From: Deltaproteobacteria bacterium
GTDB lineage: Bacteria > Bdellovibrionota > UBA1018 > UBA923
Reading direction: 5' to 3'
Assembly: GCA_016186905.1 (NCBI GenBank)
Contig: JACPKS010000044.1
Span: forward strand, 3,456-67,455
Length of the DNA stretch: 64,000 bases
A program made the position numbers and the translations under genes. This document shows positions 3,634 to 52,834 of the stretch, one piece after another (the first letter of the stretch is position 1; each line of letters opens with the position of its first letter). The notes below the pieces were generated by a model. That model did no database searches and had not been told where the DNA came from. It saw only the letters and a program-made list of their open reading frames with translations.

Positions 3634-5013
3634 GTGCGTCTTTTCCCCGCCATCCTTTTTTTCGCGGTTTCGCTCTTCGCCGCAGGCGACCCCGCTTACG
3701 TCGCGCGCGGAAAAGAAGTCGAGGGCTACTACCGCCAATACACCGCGCGGTTCGGAAAGGTGTTCGACGATCTCAAAAGCGCGCTCAAACAGCACGCGCC
3801 CGAGCTTGCCGGCCGCCTCAAAGTGCTGCCGCCGGCGCCCGTGAAACAGGGCTATCAGGTTCTTCCGAAAATCACCGAGGATCCCGCGCTGACCGTCAGC
3901 CTCGTGCCCGAAACACCCAAGCCACCCTCGTCGGTGCCTTACAGCTGGAAGCGCTCGCGCATGTTCATCGACAAGGAAATCCCGCGCATCGAGGAACAAG
4001 AAGAGAAGCTGCACGTCCTTTCAAGGCTCGGACCGCGGGAACGCAAGAACGTGCTCGAACGGATGGTCGAGGAATATCCGATTCTTGAAGACAACCAGCG
4101 CCTGATCGACCACCACATCCAGTACAATCGGTTCTGGCAGAAATCGATCCACGACGACCGCGCGCGCTTTGACCGGCTGACCCTGCTTCACGACGCGGTC
4201 GTCGAGCGCGAGGAGCTTCTGGCCCGCGAAAAACTAAACGGCTCCAATCCCGTGACGAGCGGACGCATCCGCGAGCTCAGCGCGCAGATCCGGGCCGAAG
4301 GCATCGAAAAACTCAAACTCCCGGGCTTCGCGCGCATGCGCCATCCGAAAAAGAATCTCTGGATTCTCGAGATCCCGGTTTTCACCGACATCCGCGACGA
4401 CGCGTTCATCCGGCGATTCAAAACTGAAGTCGAGCGCATCTGGCATTACCGCGAGAAGGGAGGCATCGCGCGACACGCGATGCAAAGCGCGGCGCCGAAT
4501 CCGCCCGAATTCCAGATACGACTCGAAATCAAAAAAATAGACGCGCGACGGCTCTATCCCAAGACGAAACCCGCCCCGAAGCCGGGCGACGAGATCGACG
4601 TCGAGTTTCACGCCGGGCTCTTTCCGAAAAACGGAGCGCTGCTCACGACGGGTGCTAACTCAACGTATGCGATCCCGAACCGCTACGTGGCGCTCGGACC
4701 GCAAGATCTTTCCTCGCGCACGGCCGCGCACGAATTCGGGCACGTGATCGGATTCATCGACGGGTATTTCCGCGGTTATCGCGACCGCGGCGACGAGGGT
4801 TACGAGGTGCTCGAGATCGTGCCCGACGCGACCGACATCATGAACAACCCCGTCACGGGAACGGTGAAGCTCGAGCACTTCGAGAAAATTCTGGAATCGC
4901 GAAGCAGGCGTTCGGCCGGTGTCTCGAGTTTTTTGGAGGCGTTGCAAGCTCGGCAGGCCGGCACGACGTTTCCGCGCGTGCTCGTGCCCCCGCGCGCGAC
5001 GGGCACAATGTGA
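3634..5013 (+). CDS. Secreted HExxH zinc-metalloprotease-like protein
   Basis: N-terminal signal peptide and an AAHEFGHVIGFIDGY zincin-like motif. Its C-terminal ~70 codons overlap a convergent HNH gene. Confidence 0.55.
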   Translation: MRLFPAILFFAVSLFAAGDPAYVARGKEVEGYYRQYTARFGKVFDDLKSALKQHAPELAGRLKVLPPAPVKQGYQVLPKITEDPALTVSLVPETPKPPSSVPYSWKRSRMFIDKEIPRIEEQEEKLHVLSRLGPRERKNVLERMVEEYPILEDNQRLIDHHIQYNRFWQKSIHDDRARFDRLTLLHDAVVEREELLAREKLNGSNPVTSGRIRELSAQIRAEGIEKLKLPGFARMRHPKKNLWILEIPVFTDIRDDAFIRRFKTEVERIWHYREKGGIARHAMQSAAPNPPEFQIRLEIKKIDARRLYPKTKPAPKPGDEIDVEFHAGLFPKNGALLTTGANSTYAIPNRYVALGPQDLSSRTAAHEFGHVIGFIDGYFRGYRDRGDEGYEVLEIVPDATDIMNNPVTGTVKLEHFEKILESRSRRSAGVSSFLEALQARQAGTTFPRVLVPPRATGTM

Positions 5014-5177
5014 TCCATTGTCAGCTCCGCCGCTTTGAATGCTTTCTGGCAGTAATGGCAGACCCCCGCGGCGAGTCTTGCCTGCCACCAGCCGGACTTG
5101 CGCAGCTTGCGCGCGCGCTCGCGCTCTCGCGCGACGCGCTTGGGATCGGCTTCGAGGTGATACCACTGCCGCGGCAT
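4800..5177 (-). CDS. Small HNH endonuclease
   Basis: CHYCQK...MDHIVPVARGG...NVVPACRACNASK matches the HNH/Zn-finger nuclease motif. The conserved core lies about 4901-5177. Confidence 0.5.
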   Translation of the reverse strand: MPRQWYHLEADPKRVARERERARKLRKSGWWQARLAAGVCHYCQKAFKAAELTMDHIVPVARGGTSTRGNVVPACRACNASKKLETPAERLLRDSRIFSKCSSFTVPVTGLFMMSVASGTISSTS

Positions 5178-5248
5178 AGGGGCGCACTTTACTCAATAAT
5201 AACCCACGTGGCAATTTGCCCGCTCGCACTTCGCGGGGTCTTGCTGTT

Positions 5249-5420
5249 ACTTTACAGGTGTACAGTATTTAGACGCAGTGCTGTGTATAATTTTTACATC
5301 TGGACAGGCGACATTCACCCTGACAAGTCCCTATCTTATTGGTTTTACATAATTTTTACTATAAATCCCGCCGCTTGCGCGGCGTGTTTCGCTTCGCGTG
5401 TGCTGGCACCGGCATTGCAA
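5249..5420 (+). promoter_or_regulatory. Conserved ~170-bp leader element, copy 1, ending in a sigma-54 promoter (TGGCAC-N5-TTGCA)
   Basis: About 80% identical to 19788-19958. Contains an AT-rich block, a GCCGC-TTGC-GCGGC hairpin, and TGGCACCGGCATTGCA at about 5404-5419, roughly 85 nt upstream of the lipoprotein ATG. Confidence 0.55.
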
Positions 5421-5504
5421 CTCCCCTAGTCATAGCCTGGATGGCATTTGAAGAGAGAACCCCGGGCCTGAGAAACCCGGATAAAGGGAAAAAGGAGAGA
5501 GAGT

Positions 5505-6190
5505 ATGAAATTCAATTCGAAACACACGGCCATGATCATGGTCCTTCCGGTGGCGGTCCTTTTGGCAAGCTGCGGGAAGAAAACAGCGGCACCGGAAACA
5601 CCGGCACGAGCAACAGCTGCAACCACCCGATCGTGTCGTACACGACGCCGTTCACCTACAGCCTTTCCGGCAACGGCAGCACGGGGAAGTCCACTCCGAG
5701 CGGCGTCATCCACGCCGACCAGGACCTTCGCGTGCAGGTCGTTCCCGGCTCGGCGATCGTGAACTCGACCGGCAGCGGCACCAAGCAGTACACCAAGATG
5801 GGCGTGACGGTGACCCTCCTGAAGAACGGCTCGGAAGTTCCGGGCGCTTCAGTGACGATCCCCGGCGGAACGAGTGCCACGGGCTATCGCAACGGGCTTG
5901 CGGTCGGTGCGAAGTCGCAAATCGTGGACTTCAGCACGTATCTCAGCTCGGGCAACAACACGTATTCGGTCAAGGTCTCGAACATCATGAGCGACTACAC
6001 CTGCAAGACGTACTGCACCGAGAACAACCCGCAGTACTGGCTCTGGAACGGGTACTACTACTACCCGGACTGGCAGATGATCAACGCGTGCAAAGCTCTT
6101 CAGTGCGACGTCGGCTCGGTCGACAACGTCGCGGGCTGGTCGATGACCGTGCAAGTCGAAACCGACAACACGCCCTGCCTCACTCAGTGA
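5505..6190 (+). CDS. Gly/Ser/Thr-rich secreted lipoprotein with an apparent +1/-1 frameshift near 5575-5625
   Basis: The lipoprotein signal peptide with lipobox LLASC is in the 5505 frame. The plausible mature protein continues in the 5339 frame to 6190. The 5505 frame turns into Arg-rich junk and stops at 5762. Confidence 0.45.
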
Positions 6191-19787: not shown

Positions 19788-19958
19788 CTTTACAGGCGTA
19801 CAGTATTTAGACAATTCGCTGTATATAATCTTTACAGTCGGATAGGCGGCATTCACCCTGACAAGTTCCTATCTTATTGGTTTTATATAATTTTTTCTAT
19901 AAATCCCGCCGCTTACGCGGCGTGTGCTGCGATGCGCGTGCTGGCACCGCCATTGCAC
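19788..19958 (+). promoter_or_regulatory. Conserved ~170-bp leader element, copy 2, ending in a sigma-54 promoter (TGGCAC-N5-TTGCA)
   Basis: About 80% identical to 5249-5420. TGGCACCGCCATTGCA at about 19942-19957, roughly 45 nt upstream of the lipoprotein ATG at 20001, with RBS GAGGAGAGAG. Confidence 0.55.
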
Positions 19959-20000
19959 TACTATCTTGCAAGTACAACTCTATTGAGGAGAGAGATCACT

Positions 20001-20633
20001 ATGAAACGGTTCAAACACTCTGCACTTATGGCGACGCTAATCGGCATCATGGTCGTGGCCAGCGGCTGCGGAAGCAAAAGTTCAAACCCGGCTCCCGGCG
20101 CTCCGGGCGCGCCAGGCTACTACGGCGGAACGGTGACCCCACTGCCCGGCGGAGCGGTCGCAATCGCGTTCAGCGGCTCAAACGTTTACAACAGCGGTCA
20201 GCGCATCACCGGCGGGCAAGTCACCGGAAGCGGCCAGTGCTACACGCAAGGCTGCTACTGCGGATACTTCTCGGCGAGCGGCAACGTCTGCTGGCAGTTT
20301 GCCAACCCCTACACGCAGGGAACTGGCTCCATCGCGGTCGGCGGCAACAGCATGCCGGTCGGACAGCCCGGAACGATCCAGGCGGTTTCGAAGTATGAGC
20401 CGAACTCGGGCCTCACACTCGTCGTGACCCCGGGCAGCGATGCTCTGCACTCGAACGTCTCCGGCCTGATCACGCTCTCGCCGCAGTACATGCAGATGAA
20501 CTTCCCCGGCGGATTGCCCGGAATCGTCGGTGTCGCCTTCGACATCGTCTACTCGGGCGGCCAAGGCTTCGGCGGCGTGCTCTTCTACACGTCGACCGGA
20601 ACCCCCCCGCACGGCGGGTTCTTGAGAATCTGA
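20001..20633 (+). CDS. Gly-rich, Cys-containing secreted lipoprotein
   Basis: Signal peptide MKRFKHSALMATLIGIMVVASGC with a lipobox, then a G/S/T/Y-rich mature part. The long ORF from 19932 and the ORF 19877..20398 are artefacts of the conserved leader. Confidence 0.6.
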   Translation: MKRFKHSALMATLIGIMVVASGCGSKSSNPAPGAPGAPGYYGGTVTPLPGGAVAIAFSGSNVYNSGQRITGGQVTGSGQCYTQGCYCGYFSASGNVCWQFANPYTQGTGSIAVGGNSMPVGQPGTIQAVSKYEPNSGLTLVVTPGSDALHSNVSGLITLSPQYMQMNFPGGLPGIVGVAFDIVYSGGQGFGGVLFYTSTGTPPHGGFLRI

Positions 20634-20730
20634 AGAACTGAACCCTCGGGAAAGATGGTGATTGAGTTCAGAGGGGCGCCGTGTCCGGCGCCCCTTTCTT
20701 TTTGCGCTCGAAGATCTAGAATCATGGCGT

Positions 20731-24096: not shown

Positions 24097-24939
24097 ATGA
24101 AACAAGACCCCGTTCGGAGCGAAGCGATCTTCGCCCACACGAACTACCGCGGCTTTCTAAAGTCGGTTCTCGCCGATCGCGCGGCCAAGAATAAGGCCTA
24201 CTCGCTGCGCGCGTTTTCAAAGGCGCTCTCGATTTCGCCGGGCGTGCTTTCGATGATCCTCAAAGGCGGGAAAAATCTTTCGCTCGAGCGCGCGCTCACG
24301 GTCGCGCGCAAAATCGGATTGAAAGAAAAAGAGACGGAATATTTTCTTCTGCTCGTCCAGCTCGATCGCATCGCGGATCCCGAGCTTCGCGGCACCTTCT
24401 TTGACCGCGCGGCCGCGATCCGCCCGTCGGGCAAAGTCTTCGATCTCTCTGTCGATCTTTTTAAGGTCATCGCGGATTGGCATCACCTCGCCATTCTTGA
24501 ATCGCTCGACGTCGATGGTTTGGAATGGAGCCCGAAATCGATCGCGAAGTTTCTGGGCATCTCTCCGATCGAGGTCGAAGCCGCGATCGAACGTCTCGCG
24601 CGACTGGAATTGATCGAGCTTCTCGAAGGCCGAAAACCCACCCGCACGGTGAGCCGGCTTCTTGTCGATTCCAAGATTCCAAGCGAAAGCATCCGCAAAT
24701 ATTATCGCCAGGTTCTGCAAAAGGCCGTCGAAAGCATCGAGACGCAAACGCCAAAGGAAAAAGTCTTCGCCACCGAGGTCTTCGCGTTCGACGCCACGGC
24801 GCTTGAGGAAGCCAAGTCCATCACCGACCGCTACCTCGAAGACCTGTTGAAACTCTCGCGCAAATCCAAGAACAGGCGCGACCTCTATCAGGCCGCGGTG
24901 CAATTTTTTCGTATAAACATAAACAAAGGGAGAGAATGA
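24097..24939 (+). CDS. TIGR02147-like HTH-domain regulator (Fibrobacter/Bdellovibrio paralogous family)
   Basis: N-terminal HTH-like segment YSLRAFSKALSISPGVLSMILKGGKNLSLERALTVARKIGL. Preceded by TTGACG-N17-TATAAA, with an ATAACGCGTTAT palindrome overlapping the -10 element. Confidence 0.45.
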   Translation: MKQDPVRSEAIFAHTNYRGFLKSVLADRAAKNKAYSLRAFSKALSISPGVLSMILKGGKNLSLERALTVARKIGLKEKETEYFLLLVQLDRIADPELRGTFFDRAAAIRPSGKVFDLSVDLFKVIADWHHLAILESLDVDGLEWSPKSIAKFLGISPIEVEAAIERLARLELIELLEGRKPTRTVSRLLVDSKIPSESIRKYYRQVLQKAVESIETQTPKEKVFATEVFAFDATALEEAKSITDRYLEDLLKLSRKSKNRRDLYQAAVQFFRININKGRE

Positions 24940-36605: not shown

Positions 36606-37967
36606 ATTCTCAGGCAAGAATTCGACCGAATATGCAGGCACCTGCACCAGATCGAATCTGAGCCTGGTTCCGGGATCAATCTTATAAGCAACTCTGTTTA
36701 TGTCGTGCTCTTGAAAGTTGCTGAGATTAAAATTCACCGCGAGATCGGTCTTATGCGTGCGCACGAACTGGTAGAGTGATTTAAGCGACCCGATTTTTTT
36801 AGATTTTACCTCGATCGGCATGATTTCCCCTTTGTGCTGGATCACGAAATCAATCTCGGCTGCGCCCCGCTTCTTGTTGTTCAACCAGAAGTACAGCTCA
36901 GGTTCCATGTCCGGGCCTTGAAAATAGGCCAAATGTTGCGCGATGAACTGCTCGCTGACCTTTCCCTTAAACGACTCCATGCGATCGTTCAAAATATCGT
37001 CGAAGTCGATTCCGGAAAGGCATGTCATGAGGCCCACATCCAGGAAATAAAGTTTGAAAACGCTTTCGTCCCTTTGAGCCTTGATCGGAAGCTCCGTGGC
37101 ATTCGTATGATTCGCGCGATGCACGACTCTTGCCTGGCATAAAAGCTCGATCGCTTTTTTTACGTCATTCGTCTTGTCGTCCCTGGAAATCTCGGAATAT
37201 TTGGCGAGGTTTCCGGCGCACATCGCGGCATATTCCATGACTTTCGGAAGACGCGCGGTTTGCGCCCTGGTCGCGTATTTTGAAAAATCGGCCTTGTACG
37301 TGTCGATGATTCCCCGCTGGATCCTTCTCGTCTCCCGCAAGTCACTTGTTTCAAGGTAAGTTTTGATCGCGGCCGGCATCCCGCCGACGAAAAGATACGT
37401 TTTATAATATTGCACAGCTTTCGCGTGCAAGGCTTCTGAAGGATTTTTTTTGTGCCCGACCTCGATCCACTCGATGAGTTTTTCCTCTTTGACGGCTTGC
37501 AGGTATTCAACAAAAGTCATGGGTCCCAGATGATGGAATTCGACTCTTCCGACCGGCATCGAGAATTCCTGATCGTTCAGGGTGAACTCCAGAAGCGATC
37601 CCGCTGCGATCACCGCGATATCGTGATGCTTCTCGTAGAAATACCTAAGGCAGCTCACGGCCTTCGGCTGCTCTTGAATTTCATCGATAAAAAGAAGCGT
37701 GTTCGGTTTACCGAGGGAAATTCCGGACAGCGCCTCGATTTCCTTGATGGCTAGACCGATGTCGAAAAAATTTGTCCCAAACTTTTCAAACTGACCGATT
37801 TTCGTCAGTTCAAGATTCAGCTCGCAAAGCTCAAGGCCATTGGCCGCGCAAAAATTTCTGACCAGAGTCGATTTTCCAACCTGTCTTGCCCCCCTTAGAA
37901 TGAGTGGCTTTCTATTATTTTTTGTCCGAAACCATTTGAGAAGGTCTTCCTCAGCAGCTCGCCTCAT
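36591..37967 (-). CDS. AAA+ ATPase, COG1373/DUF4143 family
   Basis: Walker A GARQVGKST, Walker B LLFIDEIQ, and a C-terminal DUF4143-like region. GC is lower than the surroundings. Confidence 0.75.
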   Translation of the reverse strand: MRRAAEEDLLKWFRTKNNRKPLILRGARQVGKSTLVRNFCAANGLELCELNLELTKIGQFEKFGTNFFDIGLAIKEIEALSGISLGKPNTLLFIDEIQEQPKAVSCLRYFYEKHHDIAVIAAGSLLEFTLNDQEFSMPVGRVEFHHLGPMTFVEYLQAVKEEKLIEWIEVGHKKNPSEALHAKAVQYYKTYLFVGGMPAAIKTYLETSDLRETRRIQRGIIDTYKADFSKYATRAQTARLPKVMEYAAMCAGNLAKYSEISRDDKTNDVKKAIELLCQARVVHRANHTNATELPIKAQRDESVFKLYFLDVGLMTCLSGIDFDDILNDRMESFKGKVSEQFIAQHLAYFQGPDMEPELYFWLNNKKRGAAEIDFVIQHKGEIMPIEVKSKKIGSLKSLYQFVRTHKTDLAVNFNLSNFQEHDINRVAYKIDPGTRLRFDLVQVPAYSVEFLPENSLQP

Positions 37968-38136
37968 ATCAAGATCTTAGCATAAATCGTATAAATAAGG
38001 GTATCTGTTTTAGACTATTATATTACTAATAAGGATGGCTGTTAAGCACCATTCGCGAGGAATCAGAGTTCAAATTTATCTTAAGGCATTGATATTACTT
38101 ATTTTATCAATCCAGCGACCGCGCAGAATTTCTAGG

Positions 38137-38400
38137 TCATTTCTGATAACGCAAGGCGCTCAGCCGCTTGGCTTTCGCGACGAGTTTCTTGAGCGGAAGT
38201 GGGGGCTCGTTTTTCAAATGCGCCATGAGCTGAACGAGAAGCTCCTTTTGAAATTTCAAGATTTCCGCGTGAACGACTCTCGCGCTTTTGCCGGCGTCGG
38301 TGGAAAAATCACAGGCCGATACCGACGGGCTCGTGCCGGCAATACTCAGCATGAGCGTCTACGCGGTGATGACCGTGGCGCGGGAATCAAGGGGATCCGG
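38137..38400 (-). pseudogene. Decayed duplicate of the abiEii 3' end
   Basis: About 85-90% nucleotide identity to 31930-32170, beginning exactly at the abiEii stop. Only a 71-aa ORF remains. Confidence 0.6.
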
Positions 38401-38442
38401 CATGAGCATGAGCTGCGGGTTCCGCCAGAGCTCCGTCCGCCC

Positions 38443-41400
38443 TTAATTGGCTCTCTTCTTCCGCAACATCTTCGCGCAACCGGCGTATTTCGTCTGCAGC
38501 AGCCGGGCGAACTCGTCCACGCCGTCGATGTAGCCGTTCAGATTCTCGGTCCATTTTACAAAATCGCGTATCAACGGGACCCCCGCCTTCGCGCGAAGAA
38601 GCCGCAATTCATCGGCGCTGAAATGATCCGCTCCTCCCATGTTGAGGAGCTCGACATATGCGCGCGCAAGAACCGGCGTGAGGCGGGCCGTCTTGCCGCG
38701 ATCCATGTCGAGCAGAAGACGGTGCAGCGATTTTTCAAGAATCTCCGGGCTGTCAACCTGAGGTTTACGCGCAAGCTTGACGAGTTTCAAAATCCCCTCT
38801 TCGAGCTCCTCGGCGCTCCACTCAGCGCTTATGAGCTCGTCGATGTATTCTTGGCCGTCCCATTTGTTATGTTTCTTGTCGTGAATGACCAGCCAGTCGA
38901 ACACGACCTTTTTCTCTTCGGGACTCAATCTGGTGGCGAGTCGAGTGATATCAGTTTCGTAGCTGTCGAACACTTGAGAAGCGTTTTGGCCAAACTCTTC
39001 AAGCGCCTTGCGCAAAAGCGCGAATTGGGCGGCTTCGTAATCGTGTAATATCGCGCGGAGGATTCTTCCGCGATCGGTGTCCGAGCCGACCTTCGCCGCG
39101 GCTTCGATGAGCTTGTCCAGGACGATTGATGCAATGGGACTTGCCGCGATCGCTTCTCGCTTTTGCTGGACGAAACTCGTGAAGGCCTCACGTTTCCCGC
39201 TCCTGGCAAGCTCGTCAATAAAAAGAATCAGCCGGGTGGAGTCGTTTAGATCAACGAGCGGCAAATCGTGCTTCATGAACACCCACCTGCTCATGCGCAG
39301 GAGCTTCGCGCGCGTTTCCCCGCCGACTTCATCGACGAGCTCGAGGATGGCGCGGTCAATGCTCGTAAGCGCATCCTGATGGCTGCTGAAGTCGAGAAGG
39401 CGCGACACAAACGAAGACCGGCTTCCGCGAAGATCCTCGCGAATCCTTGTCTTGAGCTCATCCTTAAGAGCCGCAGACGCTTCATCTCTGAAAAACAAAT
39501 CATCCGGTTTGATCGGGCCGAGCTGGCCCTTTTGCGCGAGCTGATATGCTTGACGCACATGATTAAACTCCGCGAGCCCGCGGGAAAACTGGTCCGTCGA
39601 GACATCTCCGTACTTAAGATAAAGCTCGGCGGTTTTAGGGTTGATGACAAGCATCTTCGCGACGAGATGCTCAGCGCCATGCGGACTCAACTTTCCCGCC
39701 TGGATTTTTTTCTCGAGCTCAGGCGCGAACTCGTCGGCGAACGGGAGAGCGATCCAGAACATGAAGCAGTCATCCGCATTGGCCGTTCCGAGCATTCCGC
39801 TGAAAATCAATTCCTTAAGTTTCGCCTTGGGTACGAATCGCGCATAAAAAGGGGCAAACGAGTCGATCGGGCTATAAGGGTGGTGCGCGTATTTCGAGAG
39901 CGGGTTTTTCGAGAGCAAGAAACTAGTTGAAACGGTTTCTGAAAGCCACGTGACGAATTTTTCGTCCCAGAACACGGCTCCGAGCTCCGTGCGGAATAAT
40001 GCATCCAGCTCATGCGGGTTGATCCATTTTCCCCGCTCCATCGCGTCGATGAGCCGCGCGCGAAGCCGGGCCTTTTCTTTATCGCTTGCCGCGAGGATCT
40101 TCGCGATCGCGGTCTTGCGAAATTCCGGATAAATAGCCCCTCCACCGTGAAACTCGATTCCACCCAGGAAAAGCAGGTCGAACCATTGCACGGCGTTCAT
40201 GCGCTCCTGAATGAATGGGAACTCAAGAAGCACGCTGACCATCCCATCGGCCGGCACGCCTTTGCTCATGTGCGTGAGTTTGTCGATGAACGCGTCGGCA
40301 AACTCGGCCTGATTCTCGGGATTCACGGCCTTTTTCGAAAACCGCTTGAGCAGTTCGTGTGCGAGTTTGTTTTCTTCATCGGAGCTGGACTTCGTGAAGA
40401 CGATCGCCCTGATTTTTTCGGCGGTGCTGAGCTCAAGGTGTTTGAGTGGATGAGGAAGCGCCAGCCATTCCTCGAGCAGGAATTGCGAGGGCTTGCGCTT
40501 GTGAAGCTCCTTTCGCACGATCTCGGAGATCGCGCGATCCTCGTCGTCGGAGAGGTGCGCGACCCTGCTCGTGATGCGCCGCTTGAGTTTCTCGAGAATC
40601 CCCCGGTCGCCGTCGTCGAGAAGCCTGCCGCCCTGAAGGAGCGCGAAGAACTCGGCAGGACCGATGTTCAGGCTCTCGGGGATGACTTCAAGAGCGTTGC
40701 GATTGAGAAAAATCAGAAAGTCCGTGCCTGCCACAATGAAATCCGCGCCCTCAAGCGCATCGGGTGCGACCTTGTAGCGGATGGTGAGGCCCGTGCCGGC
40801 GGCGCCTTGTCTGCCGATCCTCGTGTAATGGCCGTCGCCGAAACTCGCGGCCTCGCCCGCGTAGCCGTCGCGCGAGATCAGCACGTTGGGCCTTCCCGTC
40901 GTGTCGCGCGTGATCGATTCGTAGGCGATGAAGTCGGAAGTCTCGTGCGCGACGGCGAACTCATCCCACGGAATGTCCATTTTTTTTGCGACGTCGCGGG
41001 CCGTTCTCGCTTTTACGCCTTTCGGAAGTTTCGAACGATCGCCGACACGAAACGAGCGCAGCGGCTCTTTTCCCATCCACCAGGCCACCGATCCTTCGTC
41101 GGTGATGTCGCCGATCTTGGCGAGCTTCCGGCGCAGGCCAAGCGTGTCGAGCGTGTCCATCGCGTACTCGATGTTCACGGCGTGTTTGACGAGCTTGGCT
41201 GCATTGCCGCGGTCGGCGAGCCAGCCGCGCGCCCAGCCGCTCCAGGAAGGCGGATCGCGAACGGGATCGAAAGCGCCGATGATTCCGCGGATGGGGACGA
41301 GGTCTTCGTCGCGCGTCTTGAGCTCGTATTGAAAAGCCTTCGTGAGGTAGCGGATCACCGAGAAAATCGGCGGATTATCGCCCGCCTTGAAGCGCGACGT

Positions 41401-42132
41401 CGTTTCGTGGCGTTTTGAGAAGTAATAATGCAATTTCCCTTCGGCGGCGTCGCGCAGGAAGAACGGGTCCTTCTGGTTTTTCCAATCCCGCAGATCCCGC
41501 ACGATCGCTTCGCCGCGCGGAGAATCGGTTAGCTCGATCATTCCGGTCGAGTTCGAATCGGTGTGCTGATCCAAAAAATCCGGATTATTGAGCAGCGCCT
41601 GCTTTACTCCCCGGTCCTGCCTGAGCAGGCGCACTTCCCATTCCGACTTCGAACCTTGCAAATGCGCGAGTTTGGATTTGATCAGAGTTTCCAGCTGCTC
41701 GGCTTGCTCCGGCGTGCCGTCGACGACAAGATCGGCGTCCTGGGTTGAGCGGTAGATATTCGTGAAGTCGTAATCAAAGCGCGACTCGATGAAGCGCTTG
41801 TCGCCGCCTTTGCGCAGCAGATCCCATTTCACGTAGTGCGCGTATCCGGCGGCCGTGCCGCCGAAGAGCCAGACGCGCAGACCGAGCTCGCGCGCGGCTT
41901 CGCGGATGATCTTGAATTCGAACACGCGGTCGCGGTTTTTCGCGATTTCGGCCGCGAGCCGCCCGGTCTCGACGGGCGCGTAGCCGGTCTGGGCCGAAGG
42001 ATTTTTCGCATGCTCAGGAGCTTTCGCGTGCGCTGGCGCTTTCGCGTGCGCGGTGGCGATGATCGCGGCGACGAAAAGAGCAAACCCTGCCGCAAACAGC
42101 CTCTTTTTAGCCTGAAAAGAATGGACGATCAT
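38443..42132 (-). CDS. Giant secreted paralog of the 33252-35858 protein, with a divergent or degenerate ART-like core
   Basis: Signal peptide MIVHSFQAKKRLFAAGFALFVAAIIATAHA. It shares the N-terminal GG..A.GY...DAD-type domain and an alpha-helical C-terminus. No intact HG[ST]/E motif was found by eye. Confidence 0.45.
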   Translation of the reverse strand: MIVHSFQAKKRLFAAGFALFVAAIIATAHAKAPAHAKAPEHAKNPSAQTGYAPVETGRLAAEIAKNRDRVFEFKIIREAARELGLRVWLFGGTAAGYAHYVKWDLLRKGGDKRFIESRFDYDFTNIYRSTQDADLVVDGTPEQAEQLETLIKSKLAHLQGSKSEWEVRLLRQDRGVKQALLNNPDFLDQHTDSNSTGMIELTDSPRGEAIVRDLRDWKNQKDPFFLRDAAEGKLHYYFSKRHETTSRFKAGDNPPIFSVIRYLTKAFQYELKTRDEDLVPIRGIIGAFDPVRDPPSWSGWARGWLADRGNAAKLVKHAVNIEYAMDTLDTLGLRRKLAKIGDITDEGSVAWWMGKEPLRSFRVGDRSKLPKGVKARTARDVAKKMDIPWDEFAVAHETSDFIAYESITRDTTGRPNVLISRDGYAGEAASFGDGHYTRIGRQGAAGTGLTIRYKVAPDALEGADFIVAGTDFLIFLNRNALEVIPESLNIGPAEFFALLQGGRLLDDGDRGILEKLKRRITSRVAHLSDDEDRAISEIVRKELHKRKPSQFLLEEWLALPHPLKHLELSTAEKIRAIVFTKSSSDEENKLAHELLKRFSKKAVNPENQAEFADAFIDKLTHMSKGVPADGMVSVLLEFPFIQERMNAVQWFDLLFLGGIEFHGGGAIYPEFRKTAIAKILAASDKEKARLRARLIDAMERGKWINPHELDALFRTELGAVFWDEKFVTWLSETVSTSFLLSKNPLSKYAHHPYSPIDSFAPFYARFVPKAKLKELIFSGMLGTANADDCFMFWIALPFADEFAPELEKKIQAGKLSPHGAEHLVAKMLVINPKTAELYLKYGDVSTDQFSRGLAEFNHVRQAYQLAQKGQLGPIKPDDLFFRDEASAALKDELKTRIREDLRGSRSSFVSRLLDFSSHQDALTSIDRAILELVDEVGGETRAKLLRMSRWVFMKHDLPLVDLNDSTRLILFIDELARSGKREAFTSFVQQKREAIAASPIASIVLDKLIEAAAKVGSDTDRGRILRAILHDYEAAQFALLRKALEEFGQNASQVFDSYETDITRLATRLSPEEKKVVFDWLVIHDKKHNKWDGQEYIDELISAEWSAEELEEGILKLVKLARKPQVDSPEILEKSLHRLLLDMDRGKTARLTPVLARAYVELLNMGGADHFSADELRLLRAKAGVPLIRDFVKWTENLNGYIDGVDEFARLLQTKYAGCAKMLRKKRAN

Positions 42133-42287
42133 GCCTTCTGTATCGTCTTTGCCGGCGCCGATCAGGATGGGCAAAAGATGATCAGCAAGAGTTTCTTTGC
42201 GCGCAAACGGGCGTTGCCCGGTTGAACCAATTCAGGGGTTATCGCGACACCGCGCGACACCGGCGGTCACTCGTTCGGCTGGTAGCT

Positions 42288-43442
42288 TCAGTTCGGAAAA
42301 CTCTTAAGCAGCGCGGGCAGGCCCTCGAGCCCAGTGTAATATAAGTCCCTCATTCTCCTCGCGGTTTTCTTTCGCGCTCCATTTTCATCCGAGGCCACGA
42401 CAATGACCGGTGATTGCGGGTACATATCCCGGAACACCGAAACGGAATTTTCGGAGAATTGACGGGACTTCCATTTGCATTCGATGGCGATGGGCCGCGC
42501 TCCAGCCATGCCCTGAACGACAAAATCCACCTCATGCGCGGCCTTATCCCTCCAAAAATGTATTTTTTCCGGCGGTACGAGCGAAAGCATTTCATTCAAG
42601 ACGAAGTGCTCCCACAGAGGCCCGCAGTCGCTTTCAGTCAGACTCGTGCGGCCATGAAAATAATTGATGAACCCGGTATCGAAAAAATAGACTTTGGGAG
42701 CCGCGACGATTTCACGCGCGGGATTCGAGGAGAACGGACGCAGGATCACCGCGGCATGCGCGATTTCCAGAGCTCCGAGGTAATTCATGACTGTCTGGCG
42801 GGACAGCTCGCATGGAGCGGTCAGCGACTGGGCCTCGAAAAGCCCTCCGCTCTGCAACGCCAGCAGCTCCATGAGCTTCATGAAGCCGTACCTTTTTTCG
42901 ATCTTGAAGACTTCTTGGATGTCTTTGGCCCAAAAGCCATCGATCCAATCACGATAGGCCGCCTCATCGAAAGCGGGCGACAGCAGAAACGGCGGCAAAC
43001 CGCCCTTAAGCAGCCGCTCACGAAGGTTTCCATGCCCGAGCGCCGACAGGTCAGCGGCATTGCATGGCGTAAGTTTTACGACCCGCTTGCGGTCCGTGAG
43101 CGTGTCGCTGAACTTCGCGGTGGCAGCCAGGGTCGATGACCCAGTGGCGACGATTTTCAAGCGCGGGTAGTGATCCGCGGCGATTTTCAGCACTGCCGAC
43201 GGATTCGCGATCTTGTGGACCTCGTCGAGCACGATCAAGCGCCCATGACGGCTGTCAAAAAATTCCTCCGGATCGTCGAGAAGCCGTTGGATGCGCGGGA
43301 GCTCGCAATCAAAGTAGTCCACGTCTCCGAGCTGGCGGCAGAGGGTGGTCTTACCGGATCTGCGCACCCCCGTGAACCAAACGACGTTTTTTCTCAAAAG
43401 CGCCTGATTGATTCTTTCCAGCCAGAAATCTCTTTTAACCAC
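42288..43442 (-). CDS. AAA+ ATPase, COG1373/DUF4143 family (second copy, diverged)
   Basis: Walker A GVRRSGKTT, Walker B LIVLDEVHK and a DUF4143-like C-terminus. It lies 113 bp upstream of the giant paralog on the same strand. Confidence 0.7.
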   Translation of the reverse strand: MVKRDFWLERINQALLRKNVVWFTGVRRSGKTTLCRQLGDVDYFDCELPRIQRLLDDPEEFFDSRHGRLIVLDEVHKIANPSAVLKIAADHYPRLKIVATGSSTLAATAKFSDTLTDRKRVVKLTPCNAADLSALGHGNLRERLLKGGLPPFLLSPAFDEAAYRDWIDGFWAKDIQEVFKIEKRYGFMKLMELLALQSGGLFEAQSLTAPCELSRQTVMNYLGALEIAHAAVILRPFSSNPAREIVAAPKVYFFDTGFINYFHGRTSLTESDCGPLWEHFVLNEMLSLVPPEKIHFWRDKAAHEVDFVVQGMAGARPIAIECKWKSRQFSENSVSVFRDMYPQSPVIVVASDENGARKKTARRMRDLYYTGLEGLPALLKSFPN

Positions 43443-43545
43443 AATTTTAGTTTAGCGTTTAGTCTGACTAAACGCAAGCATGTTTTTAAATGGCTTCTTG
43501 CCGATCGGATCCTTGGGACTCGAAAATCGACCCGCGGTCAGTAGA

Positions 43546-46481: not shown

Positions 46482-47320
46482 CCGAACCCAAAACCGAACG
46501 CCTTCAAAAAGTGCTCGCGCGCGCGGGTATCGCCTCGCGCCGCAACGCCGAGATCCTGATCTTGGAAGGCGCGGTCACCGTCAACGGCCACACCGTCACC
46601 GAGCTCGGCACGAAGGTCGATCCGGCGAAAGACAAGATCAAAGTCCGCGGCAAGATGATCTACACCGAGATCGAACAGCTTTACGTCGCGTTTTACAAAC
46701 CTCGCGGGGTGATCTCAGCGCTCTCCGACCCCGAAGGCCGCGCGCACATCGGCGAATACCTCAAGGGTATTCCCGCGCGCGTGACGCCGATCGGGCGTCT
46801 TGATTTCAATTCGGAGGGGCTGATTCTTCTCACGAACGACGGCGAGCTTGCCGAGAGGATCTTCAAATCGCGCGACCTGCCCAAAACCTACATGATCAAG
46901 GTCAAAGGGCACCCCTCGCCCGAGGATCTCGGATTCTTAAAGAAGGGCTTCTTCACGCGCGAGGGCGTGCTGCGGTTTCTTTCTTACGGCGTGGACAAAG
47001 CGCTTCGAAGCAAATCATGGCTCAAACTTCAGGTCGCCGAAGGCTCGAAACTCGACATCCGCGAGCTCTTCAACCGCAAGGGCCTCATGGTCGACGGCAT
47101 CATCCGCTCGGGGATCGGCCACATCGGCCTCAAAGACATGGAGCCTGGAGAGTTTCGGTTTCTGACGAAGAAAGACTTCGAGCGGCTGGTTAGCCCGAAG
47201 CCCGCGCCGCAGGTGGCGCGGCGCCGGAATCGCGGAGTCGATGACCTGCGTCGCCCGGAAAAGCGCGCGGAGAAAGTTCCGCCAGTGCAGCCGCGCGCTC
47301 GACCATCCCGCGCAGACTGA
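46478..47320 (+). CDS. rluB: Pseudouridine synthase, RsuA/RluB family
   Basis: S4 domain (LQKVLARAGIASRR) and a PseudoU_synth_2 core. The basic C-terminal tail overlaps the convergent hemY. Confidence 0.75.
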   Translation: MTEPKTERLQKVLARAGIASRRNAEILILEGAVTVNGHTVTELGTKVDPAKDKIKVRGKMIYTEIEQLYVAFYKPRGVISALSDPEGRAHIGEYLKGIPARVTPIGRLDFNSEGLILLTNDGELAERIFKSRDLPKTYMIKVKGHPSPEDLGFLKKGFFTREGVLRFLSYGVDKALRSKSWLKLQVAEGSKLDIRELFNRKGLMVDGIIRSGIGHIGLKDMEPGEFRFLTKKDFERLVSPKPAPQVARRRNRGVDDLRRPEKRAEKVPPVQPRARPSRAD

Positions 47321-48596
47321 CCTCCCCCGTGTAATTTCCGAAGAGCACGCGCCCCGGCTTCAAGCAAAAACCGCGTGCAGCCGATTCCAATGCATGAGCG
47401 AGCCGTGCATCGTAGCGCGGGATCGCGCGTTCCACGCGATGGATGGCGATTTTCAGGTCATCCGCGCCCGGCCCTCCCCGAAAACCCAGCACCAGAGCGA
47501 GATCCGCAGCCACCCGCCGGCGAATCCCGGCGTCGGTTGCGTCGACCGCCCTTGGATCGGTGCTTCCGCCGTACATGAGTGTCAGCGATATCCAGCCCGG
47601 TGCCGCTCGCCCCTCGAAAGCACTCGAATTAAAAAGAATGCCGAGGCAATTTGCCTGTTCGCCGGGTGCTAATAACACGCCAACTCCGCAAGGAGTTGGC
47701 GAAATGTATTCTGAACGAACAAGCGCCGTGACAGAAATGAGGGCCGAGTATTCAATATTTTGAATAGCGGATGCAGTCTTCGGGTCAACCGCCGCCATCA
47801 GCCGCGCGGCCGCGGCGGCCGGCACGCAAAGCACGACGTTCCCTCCTTCAGGCAAACGCTCGAGCGCCTGCGAACACTTGAACGTGACTCGCGTGTTCGC
47901 GCGAAGCGATTTCTCGAGTGCGCGAACAAGCTCCCCCATCCCTCCGGCCGGAGCGGCCATGCGGGCACGGGGCGTCCGCGTGAAAATTCTCTTGAGGATG
48001 AGACTCGGCAGAATAAATCCCAGAAGCGAAAATCCTACGGGCACGCGGAGCCGTGGAAACGCCGCCGCAACGCAGAGGTCACTGGGTTCGGCGCCGTAAA
48101 TCCCGCGCGTAAACGGCGTCAGCAGATAGCGCGTGGCCGCCTTGCCCAGAAAATACGTTCCCCACTCTTCCAAGGTCACGCTTTCGCCGCGATGGCGTGA
48201 CAACGCGGGAAAAAAGGCCGCGTGAAAAAATGCACCAAGCGCTTCGAGCGGACGCAACGGAAAGCGCCGCATTTTTCCGTCGCGGAAAATGTAGCGCGCT
48301 CTTGATTTCGGATTGACGTCGAAAAGCGTGACTCCAAGCTCGGCGCACAATTTTTCGACGGCTGGAGTGGCGAGGAGCGAGTGCGCGGCGGTTTCGGTAA
48401 TACCGATCCACTTTCCATTACTGTCGGTGATTGCGCGGGTTTCTATCAATCCACCGGTTCGATCAGCTTGCTCGATTACGGTTATTTTAAATTCGCGCTC
48501 TTCGAGCGCGTGTATTGCATGCCCTGCAAGCAGTCCCGCGACGCCGGCTCCCACGACGGTCACTTCGCGTTGTGCTGGATCGATCCGTCCGATCAT
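47190..48596 (-). CDS. hemY: Protoporphyrinogen/coproporphyrinogen oxidase, FAD-dependent (HemY-like)
   Basis: GxGxxG dinucleotide-binding motif (VTVVGAGVAGL) and genomic context within the hem cluster. Confidence 0.6.
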   Translation of the reverse strand: MIGRIDPAQREVTVVGAGVAGLLAGHAIHALEEREFKITVIEQADRTGGLIETRAITDSNGKWIGITETAAHSLLATPAVEKLCAELGVTLFDVNPKSRARYIFRDGKMRRFPLRPLEALGAFFHAAFFPALSRHRGESVTLEEWGTYFLGKAATRYLLTPFTRGIYGAEPSDLCVAAAFPRLRVPVGFSLLGFILPSLILKRIFTRTPRARMAAPAGGMGELVRALEKSLRANTRVTFKCSQALERLPEGGNVVLCVPAAAAARLMAAVDPKTASAIQNIEYSALISVTALVRSEYISPTPCGVGVLLAPGEQANCLGILFNSSAFEGRAAPGWISLTLMYGGSTDPRAVDATDAGIRRRVAADLALVLGFRGGPGADDLKIAIHRVERAIPRYDARLAHALESAARGFCLKPGRVLFGNYTGEVSLRGMVERAAALAELSPRAFPGDAGHRLRDSGAAPPAARASG

Positions 48597-48602
48597 TTTC
48601 GC

Positions 48603-50078
48603 CTAGATCGTCTTGCTGAAGAGCTGCGTTTCGGGGGATTTGCGCGTAAGCCTGGCGTCGAAGGCCATGCAGACATTCCTTAAAAAAGCGCGTCCCTCGG
48701 GTCTCACGCGGCAAGAGCGACGCGAGAGCTCCAGCAGCCCGTCCCGCGAGAGTTCGGCCAGCCGCTCGCTCACGGTTTCAAGATAGGGAGTGTACGCCTC
48801 GTGCGCGGACCAATCGGTCTGAAAACGCGTCATGAGATTCAAAATGTGCCGGCGCAGAATGCGGTCTTCGCCGTCGAGAACGTGTCCGCGGCTCACCGGA
48901 AGCGCTCCGCGCTCCACGCGATCGACATAGGTTTCGAGCACTTTTTCGTTTTGCGCGAACGCGCCCCAGGAGTCGCCGATCGACGAAACGCCAAGACCGA
49001 TCAGCGGCGAAACCTGGCGCGAAGTGTAGCCCATGAAGTTCCGGTGGAGCGTGCCGTCGGTCGACGCGCGATGAAGCGAGTCGCTCTCCAGCGCGAAGTG
49101 GTCCATGCCGATCTCGCGATAACCGACTTCCTCGAGCATCGTGCGGCCCAGCTCGTAAAGCGCGCGCTTTTCGTCGCCGACCGGGAGGTCCGCTTCGGTA
49201 AATCTGCGCTGGCCGGGCTTGATCCACGGAACGTGCGCGTAAGCGTAAAACGCGATGCGGTCGGGACGCAGCCTGCGCACCGCATCGACCGTGTCGGAGA
49301 TGCTTTTCGGCGTTTGAAGCGGAAGCCCGTAGATCAGGTCGAAGTTAATGCTCGTAAAACCCTCAGCGCGCGCGGGTTCGATCACGGCCCGAACCTGTTC
49401 CTCGCTTTGCACGCGATGAACGATTTCCTGCACGCGCGGATCGAAGTCTTGAATGCCCAGGCTCAAACGGCGAAAACCCAGCTCCGCGAGCGTTTTCAGC
49501 TGCTCACGCGTCGTCAGACGCGGATCGGCTTCAACCGAAAATTCCGCGCCCGCGCTCACGCCCGCTCTTTCAAGAATTCCGCCGACGAGGCGCCTGAACT
49601 CGTCGGGAGAAAGAAACGTCGGCGAGCCTCCGCCCAGGTGAAGCTCGGTGAGCGTCACCTCTTTGGCGCGCCCGCTTTCCGCCGAAAGGCGATCCAGGTA
49701 AATGCCCCACTCCTTTAAAACGGTTCCGATGTACGGATCGCCGGCCTTGCGATTGCGCGTGATGCGCGTGTTGCAGCCGCAGTAGGTGCAAAGACTTTGG
49801 CAAAAGGGAATGTGAACGTACAAAGCCGCGCCCACGCCGCCGCGCGAGCCCGCGTCGAGCGCCTCGCCGATCGAGCGCACCCAGTCGGTCTCGCCGGGCG
49901 TCACCGCCCAATACGGCACCGTGGGATAGCTCGTGTAGCGCGGTCCCGGAACGTTGTATTTTTTGAGAAGCGCGGTATCCGGTCTCACGTGAACACCTCG
50001 CGCTGCAGCTTTAAGAAAAGCTTTACGTTTTCCTCCGGAGTGCCGGGAAGGACTCCATGACCAAGGCCACAGATCCAC
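48603..50078 (-). CDS. hemN: Oxygen-independent coproporphyrinogen III oxidase (radical SAM)
   Basis: CQSLCTYCGC radical-SAM motif and N-terminal YNVPGPRYTSYPT. The true start may be the GTG near 49987. Confidence 0.85.
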   Translation of the reverse strand: MDLWPWSWSPSRHSGGKRKAFLKAAARGVHVRPDTALLKKYNVPGPRYTSYPTVPYWAVTPGETDWVRSIGEALDAGSRGGVGAALYVHIPFCQSLCTYCGCNTRITRNRKAGDPYIGTVLKEWGIYLDRLSAESGRAKEVTLTELHLGGGSPTFLSPDEFRRLVGGILERAGVSAGAEFSVEADPRLTTREQLKTLAELGFRRLSLGIQDFDPRVQEIVHRVQSEEQVRAVIEPARAEGFTSINFDLIYGLPLQTPKSISDTVDAVRRLRPDRIAFYAYAHVPWIKPGQRRFTEADLPVGDEKRALYELGRTMLEEVGYREIGMDHFALESDSLHRASTDGTLHRNFMGYTSRQVSPLIGLGVSSIGDSWGAFAQNEKVLETYVDRVERGALPVSRGHVLDGEDRILRRHILNLMTRFQTDWSAHEAYTPYLETVSERLAELSRDGLLELSRRSCRVRPEGRAFLRNVCMAFDARLTRKSPETQLFSKTI

Positions 50079-51133
50079 CCTTTGCGCGCCTGCTGCGGTA
50101 GACGTAAAATACCGGTAAAAACATTACGTAGGCGCGTGTGCAGTTCGCGCGCGTCGAGGAAGAGCCACTCCGGATCGACATTGCCTTGAATCGCGAAGCG
50201 GCCTCCGAACTCGGTCAGCACGTCCGCGAGCTTGTGATTCCAATCGATGCCGATCCCTTCGATCGGAAGGTCGGCGAGCATCGACCAATGCGCGGGGCCC
50301 GTCCCCTTCGAGTAATACACCAGCGGCACGCCCGGACAGCGGCTGCGAAACTCCGCAAGCACCGCTTTAAGCGCCGGCAGCGCGTAATCGCGAAACGCTT
50401 CAACGCCAAACTCGCCCGCGCAGGTATCGAGCACCGCTACCGTATCGACACCCGCCTCGGCTTGAAGAGCCATGTTCGCGGCAAGAAGCCCGGTGAGCTT
50501 CGTGCAGAAACCCTTGAAACGCCCGTCGCGAAAACCCGCCCGCGCGGAGGCAAGCTTTCCATGGTGCGAGCCTTCGACGGCGTAGCTGTACAGGGTCAAC
50601 GGTCCGCCGACGAAACCGAGCAAGCCTTTCGACGAATCCAGGCGCTCCCGGATCAGCCGTATCGCCTGGCCCTGAAAATCCAGATCCTTCGCGAGTGCCG
50701 CGCCAAAGCCTAGCTTTTTCAGCGCGCTTGGCGCGTCGAGGTGCCAGTCGAGCTTCGGTCCGGGCTCGTAGCGCAGTCCCATTCCCATTGCCTCGAGAGG
50801 AAAAAGAAGATCCGAAAACAAGATGGCCGCGTCAAACCCGAAATCCTCGACCGGGCCCATCGTCGCCTCGCAAGCGATCTCAGGTCTCTTGCAAAGGTCC
50901 ATGAACGAATGCCGCGCGCGAAGTTTTTGATAGTGAGAATGATAGCGGCCCGCCTGGCGCATGAACCAGACCGGCGGGCGGCCGGCGTTGCGACGCGAAA
51001 GCGCGTCCCGAAAAAGATTCGCTCCGCTAGCGCTCCGCAGGCCGTCCTGGCTCGCTCCGCTAGCGCTCCGCAGGCCGTCCTGGCTCGCTCCGCTGCTCGC
51101 TCCGCTAGCGCTGTTCAGACCGTTCTGGCTCAT
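49985..51133 (-). CDS. hemE: Uroporphyrinogen decarboxylase
   Basis: PVWFMRQAGRY... URO-D signature. The N-terminal extension carries a 33-bp tandem repeat. Confidence 0.85.
   Translation of the reverse strand: MSQNGLNSASGASSGASQDGLRSASGASQDGLRSASGANLFRDALSRRNAGRPPVWFMRQAGRYHSHYQKLRARHSFMDLCKRPEIACEATMGPVEDFGFDAAILFSDLLFPLEAMGMGLRYEPGPKLDWHLDAPSALKKLGFGAALAKDLDFQGQAIRLIRERLDSSKGLLGFVGGPLTLYSYAVEGSHHGKLASARAGFRDGRFKGFCTKLTGLLAANMALQAEAGVDTVAVLDTCAGEFGVEAFRDYALPALKAVLAEFRSRCPGVPLVYYSKGTGPAHWSMLADLPIEGIGIDWNHKLADVLTEFGGRFAIQGNVDPEWLFLDARELHTRLRNVFTGILRLPQQARKGWICGLGHGVLPGTPEENVKLFLKLQREVFT
51021..51120. repeat. 33-bp tandem repeat (two perfect copies plus a partial) at the hemE 5' end
   Basis: gctccgctagcgctccgcaggccgtcctggctc occurs twice, encoding SASGASQDGLR twice in the hemE frame. 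Confidence 0.6.
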
Positions 51134-51858
51134 TTTGCGCCCTCCGCGTCCACCACGAGCTGATAGCCCACGCCACGAATACTGCGGATCACCTGCGGAT
51201 TTTCCACGTCGTACTCGACGATCCGGCGAAGTCTCAGAATGAAATTATCGACCGTGCGCGGGCTCGGAAAATCATCGTCCGACCAGACCTTATCCAGAAT
51301 TTCGTCGCGGCTCACGGCCACGCCCCTTTTCTCATACAGAAGTTTCAGGAGCGCGCATTCTTTGTGGGTCAACGGTTGCATCTCGGTCTTGCCCGCCTGC
51401 CGCACCTCCGCCGCGAAACTCGCGAAGCGCACGGTCGCGCGACCGATCCGCACCGCGCGCTTCGCTGCGGGACCGCTCGAGAGATCTTTCATGCGACGAA
51501 GGATGTTTCGAATCCTCAATAAAAGTTCCTTCACGTGAAAAGGTTTGGTGACATAATCTTCGGCGCCCAGCTCGAGCCCTCGGATGCGGTCTTCGGGGTC
51601 TCCATGGGCGGTGAGAAAAACCGCGGCCGTCGCGGGGCTGCGCTTGCGAAGCACGGCCGCGAGCGCGAACCCCGAACCGTCGGGAAGCCCCACGTCGAGC
51701 AATGCCATGTCGAACGCGCGCGCGGCGATCGCAGCCTCCGCTTCTTTCACCGAGCAAACCCAGGTCACATCGAAGCCCTCTTGTTTGAGACGCTCGTAAA
51801 GCGTTGAGCCGACGTTCCTTTCGTCTTCGACGACGAGGATCGATTCCGCTTCAGACAT
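51130..51858 (-). CDS. OmpR-family response regulator
   Basis: Receiver domain (ILVVEDE...D...K) and a winged-helix C-terminus. Confidence 0.8.
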   Translation of the reverse strand: MSEAESILVVEDERNVGSTLYERLKQEGFDVTWVCSVKEAEAAIAARAFDMALLDVGLPDGSGFALAAVLRKRSPATAAVFLTAHGDPEDRIRGLELGAEDYVTKPFHVKELLLRIRNILRRMKDLSSGPAAKRAVRIGRATVRFASFAAEVRQAGKTEMQPLTHKECALLKLLYEKRGVAVSRDEILDKVWSDDDFPSPRTVDNFILRLRRIVEYDVENPQVIRSIRGVGYQLVVDAEGAK

Positions 51859-52834
51859 GCTCAACGGCCTCCTGCAGTCTGAGCCGCGCTTCAAACCCCG
51901 CAAGCGTCTTGCCGTCGTTTTTCGCATTTCCGAAGCTCACCGCCCCGTTCATGCGCTCCACGAGAACTTTCACCAGGTAAAGCCCGACACCGGCGCCCTG
52001 AGAGGCCGGCCCTTTCGCGAACAGGGTTCCAAGCCTCACGTCGGTTCCGGTAAAGCCGTTTCCGTTATCGCGGAAAAAAAGCTCCACCGAGCCCGGCGCG
52101 CGCCGGGCCGTGATCGTCACCACGAGATTCTCGCGCCCGGAGTGACGGAAGGCGTTTTCGACGAGGTTGCGAAAAACAATCTGAAGCGCCACCGGATCCG
52201 CCTCGATGGCCACGTCTTCAGGCACATCTTCAAGCTGCACGCGAAGCTCGAGGCGGCGCGCATACGTCTCGGCCCAGCTCCTCGCGATGCGCTCGATCCA
52301 CGGCTTCAAACGAAGCGGCTGCGTGAAGACCGGCCCTCCGCCCTCGACGCGCGCGAGCTCGAGCGTCTTGTCGACCTGAGATTCAAGCCGCGAGGTGTCC
52401 TCGAGAAGCCGCGCGATGAGCGGTTTGGGATCGGACGCGCTCTCGGCGATCGATTCGGCCTGCAGGCGGATGCTGGTAAGCGGGGTCCTGAGCTCATGCG
52501 TGAATGCCGCGAAAAAAGAACGCATCGCTCGGGTGCGCTTGAGGTCGCGATAATATACCCACGAAAGAAACGCGGTACTTCCCACAAGCAGCAGCACGTA
52601 TACCGAAAATTCCCAGTACAGCATCCGTTGCGTGCGCAGAAAATGCATCGTGCTCAGCTCGCGCGAAACTCCAAGCGCGCCCTCAAGCTCGGCGATGCGT
52701 TTTCCCTGTCGCAGAAGCAGACTGCCCCACCAGACGCCGAGCACGCACACCAGGAGCTGCCAGAGGGCCAGGATCACCGTAGCCGCCCGCAAGCGGCGCC
52801 TTAGAAATGTGGTGATGGTGCCGTTTCCCGTCAT
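51851..52834 (-). CDS. Sensor histidine kinase
   Basis: Two TM helices, H-box HELRTPLTSI and an HATPase_c region. Confidence 0.75.
   Translation of the reverse strand: MTGNGTITTFLRRRLRAATVILALWQLLVCVLGVWWGSLLLRQGKRIAELEGALGVSRELSTMHFLRTQRMLYWEFSVYVLLLVGSTAFLSWVYYRDLKRTRAMRSFFAAFTHELRTPLTSIRLQAESIAESASDPKPLIARLLEDTSRLESQVDKTLELARVEGGGPVFTQPLRLKPWIERIARSWAETYARRLELRVQLEDVPEDVAIEADPVALQIVFRNLVENAFRHSGRENLVVTITARRAPGSVELFFRDNGNGFTGTDVRLGTLFAKGPASQGAGVGLYLVKVLVERMNGAVSFGNAKNDGKTLAGFEARLRLQEAVEHV

Follow-up and report, generated by a model that had tools for sequence, protein, structure and literature searches.

Enhancer-dependent sigma-54 promoters are best known from the canonical cases of Escherichia coli glnAp2, Klebsiella nifH and Pseudomonas putida Pu. 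A different arrangement, in which near-identical upstream regions stand before lipoprotein genes with differing mature parts, is familiar from Mycoplasma vlp/vsp and Borrelia erp/mlp; there, the promoters are of the sigma-70 type, the genes form multigene families on repeated DNA, and the cassettes often mediate phase variation. In enhancer-dependent sigma-54 promoters, UAS elements normally lie at least 100 bp upstream and act through DNA looping (PMC4641369), and sigma-54 control of the cell exterior, lipoproteins included, is a recognised theme (Francke et al. 2011, PMC3162934). In Borrelia burgdorferi, the Rrp2–RpoN–RpoS pathway controls lipoproteins only indirectly, the target of RpoN being the rpoS promoter (cited in PMC3162934), and two former Deltaproteobacteria, Myxococcus xanthus, with its Nla28 network (PMC9765219), and Desulfovibrio vulgaris, with its regulome (PMC4641369), represent lineages that rely heavily on sigma-54. 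Our literature search found no report of a mapped sigma-54/RpoN regulon in Bdellovibrionota.

Here, we analyse a 64-kb stretch of DNA from an uncultured member of that phylum (the window, which denotes the whole stretch at its full length), where two lipoprotein genes are each preceded by what is probably a functional sigma-54 promoter. As in glnAp2, nifH and Pu, both sites match TGGCAC-N5-TTGCA exactly (GG at −24, GC at −12), show no −35/−10 pair and follow a conserved region 50–180 bp upstream, from which an A/T-rich tract separates the promoter. Unlike in those promoters, the upstream motifs match no known enhancer-binding protein (EBP) site and no IHF consensus, and the predicted targets, instead of being nitrogen, carbon or flagellar genes, encode orphan lipoproteins. 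The link of sigma-54 to surface or secreted lipoproteins through an EBP-sensed signal would recall the Borrelia Rrp2–RpoN–RpoS pathway, but the −24/−12 promoter stands here directly before each lipoprotein gene. The approach taken here is that by which the M. xanthus and D. vulgaris regulons were defined, from conserved −24/−12 promoters together with upstream sites recognised by comparison of related genes, whereas the present organism is uncultured and falls in Bdellovibrionota; and in contrast to the Mycoplasma and Borrelia cassettes, there are two copies, unrelated proteins and a promoter of the sigma-54 type. The architecture is that of a textbook promoter and changes no general concept, but it offers a well-supported starting point for the study of sigma-54 control in a lineage that is uncultured and akin to predatory Bdellovibrionota, places two orphan lipoprotein families in a regulatory class and provides, in a common 154-nt block, a bait for finding the activator and hence the signal.

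Two exact −24/−12 sites before lipoprotein genes

A preliminary description of this DNA had reported two perfect RpoN matches at the end of a conserved upstream element, and their coordinates, strand and GG/GC spacing all proved exact (Table 1). Both TGGCACCGGCATTGCA (GG at 5405–5406, GC at 5417–5418) and TGGCACCGCCATTGCA (GG at 19943–19944, GC at 19955–19956) match TGGCAC-N5-TTGCW on the coding strand and point at the gene starts. Between TTGCA and the start codon lie 85 nt for gene 1 (ATG at 5505) and 43 nt for gene 2 (ATG at 20001), in agreement with the 45–85 nt given there. Across the window, the pattern TGGCACNNNNNTTGCW matches these two sites and no other, even when one mismatch is allowed. 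The exact TGGCAC-N5-TTGCW occurs twice against 0.01 expected occurrences (0 of 100 shuffles gave two), and a looser motif with up to two mismatches is not enriched in the window (46 observed versus 56.7 expected). The window is of metagenomic origin, and the region of gene 2, promoter 2 included, has an identical sequence on three Logan metagenome contigs.

It was also argued that two independent matches are unlikely by chance, but the sites are the 3′ ends of the copies of one 170-nt repeat and so are not independent, and the chance argument fails as it was stated. What makes the promoters credible, rather than a coincidence within the window, is that the motif is kept before the genes of relatives. 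A scan of the + strand upstream of either gene found no −35/−10 pair that passes as a sigma-70-type promoter. Motif, orientation, distance, this negative scan and the motif of the relatives together sustain the assignment of RpoN promoters to both lipoprotein genes, and we put the probability that both sites are functional sigma-54 promoters at about 0.77.

Table 1 Positions of the promoters, upstream blocks, genes and transcript features in the window
Feature	Position	Strand	Details and basis
Control block copy 1	5250–5403	+	Repeat with copy 2; internal features
Sigma-54 promoter 1 (probable)	5404–5419	+	TGGCACCGGCATTGCA; exact consensus; motif also before the L008 and L011 relatives
Predicted transcription starts	~5430 (gene 1), ~19968 (gene 2)	+	For gene 1 from standard −24/−12 numbering
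Predicted 5′ UTR, gene 1	5430–5504 (~75 nt)	+	GGATGGCATTTGAAGAGAGA at 5439–5458; hairpin at 5461–5481; Shine–Dalgarno AGGAGAGAGAG
Lipoprotein gene 1	5505–6190	+	Translations, intact allele, family alignment, structure model
Control block copy 2	19788–19941	+	Repeat with copy 1; internal features
Sigma-54 promoter 2 (probable)	19942–19957	+	TGGCACCGCCATTGCA; exact consensus; motif also before the L004 relative
Lipoprotein gene 2	20001–20633	+	210 aa; lipobox VASGC; translation
Intrinsic terminator after gene 2	20670–20697 or 20670–20707	+	12-bp stem with 9 GC pairs, then CTTTTTGCGC

A 170-nt block shared by the two upstream regions

The conserved upstream element of the preliminary description corresponds to a direct repeat of 170 nt (5250–5419 and 19788–19957) with 25 mismatches and 85.3% identity. 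The window contains it twice, each copy facing a gene start. Their edges are sharp, as identity just outside drops to 20% on the left and 16% on the right, and the right edge coincides with the final A of TTGCA. The mismatches between the copies are grouped in four short patches (permutation P = 0.0004), so the block reads as a series of constrained segments between free spacers.

Within the block, a short direct repeat with the consensus (C)TTTACAG-N3-G-NA-NAG recurs at a spacing of 42 bp, as TTTACAGGTGTACAG (5251–5265) and TTTACATCTGGACAG (5293–5307) in copy 1 and as CTTTACAGGCGTACAG (19788–19803) and CTTTACAGTCGGATAG (19830–19845) in copy 2. Further downstream, copy 1 has a tract of 70–80% A/T at about 5330–5365, in a genome of roughly 60% GC, and copy 2 has an A/T-rich imperfect palindrome at 19879–19906. 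A GC palindrome, CGCCGC-N4-GCGGCG (5369–5384 in copy 1 and 19907–19922 in copy 2), is the only inverted repeat strictly kept in both. The block occupies about −50 to −180, the usual range of activator sites, and on these features copy 1 is a candidate activator-binding and DNA-bending region. The IHF consensus WATCAANNNNTTR was not found in the block with one mismatch allowed.

Genome, metagenome and plasmid collections did not return the 170-nt block beyond the source organism. With the block centre without the promoter (CACCCTGACAAGTNCCTATC) as query, the genome collection gave no match and the metagenome collection three, all of them chance 20-mers without flanking similarity; the block had no match in the plasmid collection.

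Conservation of the motif in relatives

Three relatives of the two lipoproteins carry a perfect TGGCAC-N5-TTGCA 47–65 nt before their ATGs. Two belong to lipoprotein 1, at 58% identity (L008, contig GC 34%, TGGCACTGGCATTGCA 65 nt before the ATG) and 43% identity (L011, contig GC 46%, TGGCACCGCGGTTGCA 64 nt before the ATG), and one to lipoprotein 2, at 41% identity (L004, contig GC 59%, TGGCACCACCCTTGCA 47 nt before the ATG). The chance of an exact motif is about 1 × 10−4 per upstream region, and in roughly 65 kb of fetched loci it occurs only at these positions and never in unrelated contigs. Two other lipoprotein 1 relatives, L009 (51% identity, contig GC 47%) and L012 (46% identity, contig GC 46%), have no such motif; they form the FQNCGK sub-branch, and L012 keeps TGGCAC without the GC at −12. 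Present in three relatives and missing in these two, the association of motif and lipoprotein gene is thus frequent and old, but not universal.

Upstream of the promoter, similarity between the window and the relatives is at chance level in a shuffle test, and only L008 and L011 resemble each other significantly there. Candidate enhancer motifs that look alike by eye in several loci (TACAGGTGTA, GCTNTATATAATCT and TATAAT at −118/−119) were set aside in view of the chance-level similarity in that test. In L004, the promoter is kept and the sequence upstream of it differs from that of gene 2 in the window.

The neighbourhoods of two relatives add an observation of their own. In L008 (3131–4612, − strand) and L011 (2–613, − strand), a gene with a prepilin-type N terminus (GLTLIEF and GFTLTEF, respectively) stands head-to-head with the lipoprotein 1 relative; the two prepilin-like neighbours resemble each other, and an additional N_methyl gene lies in L008. 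No prepilin-like gene of this kind is present in the window. There are hints here that the lipoprotein 1 family is tied to type IV pilus-like systems.

A common activator as the best reading, and its alternatives

If the sites act as their sequence suggests, RNA polymerase with sigma-54 would bind GG at −24 and GC at −12 to form a closed complex, which would stay inactive until an AAA+ enhancer-binding protein reaches it through a DNA loop and uses ATP to open the promoter. The putative site of that protein would lie somewhere in the conserved block, about 50–180 bp upstream, and the tract of 70–80% A/T between activator region and promoter may aid DNA bending. Each gene would then give one short monocistronic mRNA and, from it, a secreted lipid-anchored protein. 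Since the 154-nt upstream blocks are near-identical, both genes most likely answer one common activator and come on at the same time; it is plausible that the block serves both as an enhancer bound by a single activator, and the two lipoprotein genes are best read as members of one activator-dependent regulon. Along with co-regulation, we infer an rpoN gene in the genome, a block that holds the sites of a single activator and transcription starts near 5430 and 19968.

The alternative that survives best keeps the promoters as real but takes the 170-nt identity as a mere footprint of recent copying, by duplication or gene conversion, such that most of the block is no shared enhancer and the activator need not be common to both genes. 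Sharp edges with 16–20% identity just outside, a block centre that was not found in other organisms, chance-level upstream similarity between window and relatives, and a promoter in L004 behind a different upstream sequence are all as expected from copying. However, the mismatches are clustered (P = 0.0004) and not spread evenly as in a neutrally decaying copy, and a copied block would carry the activator sites along anyway. Since a sigma-54 promoter depends on an upstream activator site in order to fire, some portion even of a copied block must be functional; together with the clustered mismatches, this argues for a function of much of the copied sequence. We regard this footprint explanation as unlikely.

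Going beyond a common activator, the block could be a portable enhancer-plus-promoter cassette, copied between unrelated genes and marking a lineage-specific set of surface lipoproteins under sigma-54/EBP control in Bdellovibrio-like, possibly predatory bacteria. On that view, as the set stands head-to-head with type IV pilin-like genes in two relatives, it may serve a programme of pilus function or prey contact; this extension is speculative, and we hold it to be improbable.

Another explanation places a sigma-70-type start further upstream, for example at the TATAAT at −118, which would turn the block into a long structured 5′ leader or a small RNA. In L008, in L011 and in the two copies of the window, a TATAAT does precede TGGCAC by 118–119 nt, and the GC hairpin of copy 1, followed by TGTTT, was flagged as terminator-like. 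Yet L008 is very AT-rich, with four TATAAT hexamers in 200 nt, the scan accepted no −35/−10 pair in copy 1 or copy 2, and the tail of the copy 2 hairpin is not T-rich. The two copies also have different predicted structures with no common RNA fold (fold z-scores of −0.16 and −2.14), and no Rfam family matches at the gathering score (best permissive hit 26.3 bits, threshold 102.3). Conservation, moreover, ends exactly at the −12 element instead of running into the transcript, and we give a leader or small RNA very little credence.

That the repeat is a selfish or structural element of the MITE or REP kind, with an incidental and inactive sigma-54-like 16-mer, would suit a repeated non-coding block with two copies in 64 kb, but it is highly improbable and largely refuted by relatives in which the block is missing but a perfect motif is retained equally far from the ATG; in addition, the block ends (CTTTACAGG and CATTGCA) lack complementarity, so that there are no terminal inverted repeats, the flanks of neither copy contain a target-site duplication, the sole strictly kept palindrome is internal, both copies face a gene start, and plasmids, genome representatives and metagenome contigs gave no match.

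Search for RpoN and an activator in this lineage

The gene complement of the 64-kb window includes neither an rpoN nor an EBP gene (PF00158); the only Sigma54_activat match, in ClpA, is generic AAA+ similarity. Attempts to extend the contig towards such genes through look-ups with ClpA, MutS and P0005 returned nothing, and PntB led only to a 2.9-kb contig. The sole named relative is an uncultured Bacteriovoracaceae MAG, also of the phylum Bdellovibrionota. Cultured members of that phylum have rpoN, namely Bdellovibrio bacteriovorus HD100, in which RpoN is encoded by bd0843 (PMC3464611), and Bacteriovorax marinus SJ (PMC3526173), so by analogy the source genome likely has it as well. In line with this relative, from which the phylum was inferred here, the window also encodes an HTH protein with a DUF4423 domain (TIGR02147) at 24097–24939, followed by an ankyrin-repeat protein and large domain-free ORFs; this TIGR02147/DUF4423 family is present in Bdellovibrio as Bd3700 (PMC12546842).

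Two unrelated lipoprotein families

Both genes encode lipoproteins, as first proposed, the lipobox being LLASC for gene 1 and VASGC for gene 2, and lipoboxes are present in all relatives of both families, among them P0002–P0004 for lipoprotein 2. A closer relative of gene 2, P0012, is 90% identical to it. Neither protein belongs to a Pfam or NCBIfam family, and a BLASTP comparison of the two (E = 0.38) indicates that they are unrelated.

The signal peptide of gene 1, MKFNSKHTAMIMVLPVAVLLASC (...LLASCGKK), fits the lipobox pattern [LVI][ASTG][GAS]C, and the mature domain lies in another reading frame than the signal peptide, readable from about 5582. An intact allele of 252 aa (P0010), in the same 90% protein cluster and on five Logan contigs, has an identical signal peptide and lipobox together with a 24-residue linker rich in S, T and N that is missing from the window copy. 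The window copy of gene 1 has therefore lost about 73 nt out of frame (near 5577–5590); strain variation (a strain-level pseudogene) and a collapse in the assembly are both possible causes. A programmed frameshift and a leader peptide (MxFEER) had also been considered and are ruled out by this intact allele of the same cluster. The model of lipoprotein 1 is a beta-sandwich (pLDDT 70.5) with no convincing neighbour in the PDB (TM 0.2–0.3), and the family comprises 49 representative clusters among 1.84 billion proteins.

For lipoprotein 2, the model is unusable (pLDDT 45.6). The strong intrinsic terminator 3′ of its gene makes gene 2 a single-gene transcription unit. On the contig of P0004, the gene order MutS–amidase–lipoprotein is the same as in the window.

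Some similarity also extends into the 5′ untranslated regions. The motif GGATGnnnTTTGAAGAGAGA is common to gene 1 (5439–5458) and its 43%-identical relative L011 (about 849–868), L008 has a partial version (AAAGAGAGAAC, about 4915–4926) and then a hairpin, and in gene 2 a similar sequence, TTGAGGAGAGAGA, acts as the predicted ribosome-binding site.

Other features of the window

Divergent from gene 1, a small ORF resembling HNH-type endonucleases (4800–5177, − strand) has its own sigma-70-like promoter (5186–5214, − strand) and overlaps the 3′ end of a + strand ORF (3634–5013), whose secreted product contains the zinc-protease motif HEFGH and matches no Pfam family. A segment of lower GC (0.50–0.56) at about 31300–43500 resembles a mobile or defence island. 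It includes a PemK/MazF-like ORF (31316–31681) and small antitoxin-like and HTH ORFs, judged from their translations by eye, as well as two DUF4143/AAA_14 ATPases (36591–37967 and 42288–43442) and a domain-free ORF of 1,243 aa (38443–42174). A second direct repeat of the window (31938–32147 and 38160–38369; 210 nt, 90% identity) corresponds to the 3′ end of a minus-strand gene (31930–32700), a fragment of which has been duplicated.

A long haem cluster on the minus strand (47190–59653) comprises hemA-like, hemC/D, hemB, hemL, hemE, hemN-like, hemY-like and hemH genes, with an orphan histidine kinase (51851–52834) embedded in it. At the 5′ end of its minus-strand hemE (URO-D) ORF (49985–51133) lies a 33-nt tandem repeat of three copies, two of them identical (51019–51129). 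Between clpS (60141–60488) and clpA (61580–63910), finally, there is a nucleotidyltransferase/HEPN-like toxin–antitoxin pair of the MNT–HepT type (60817–61507).
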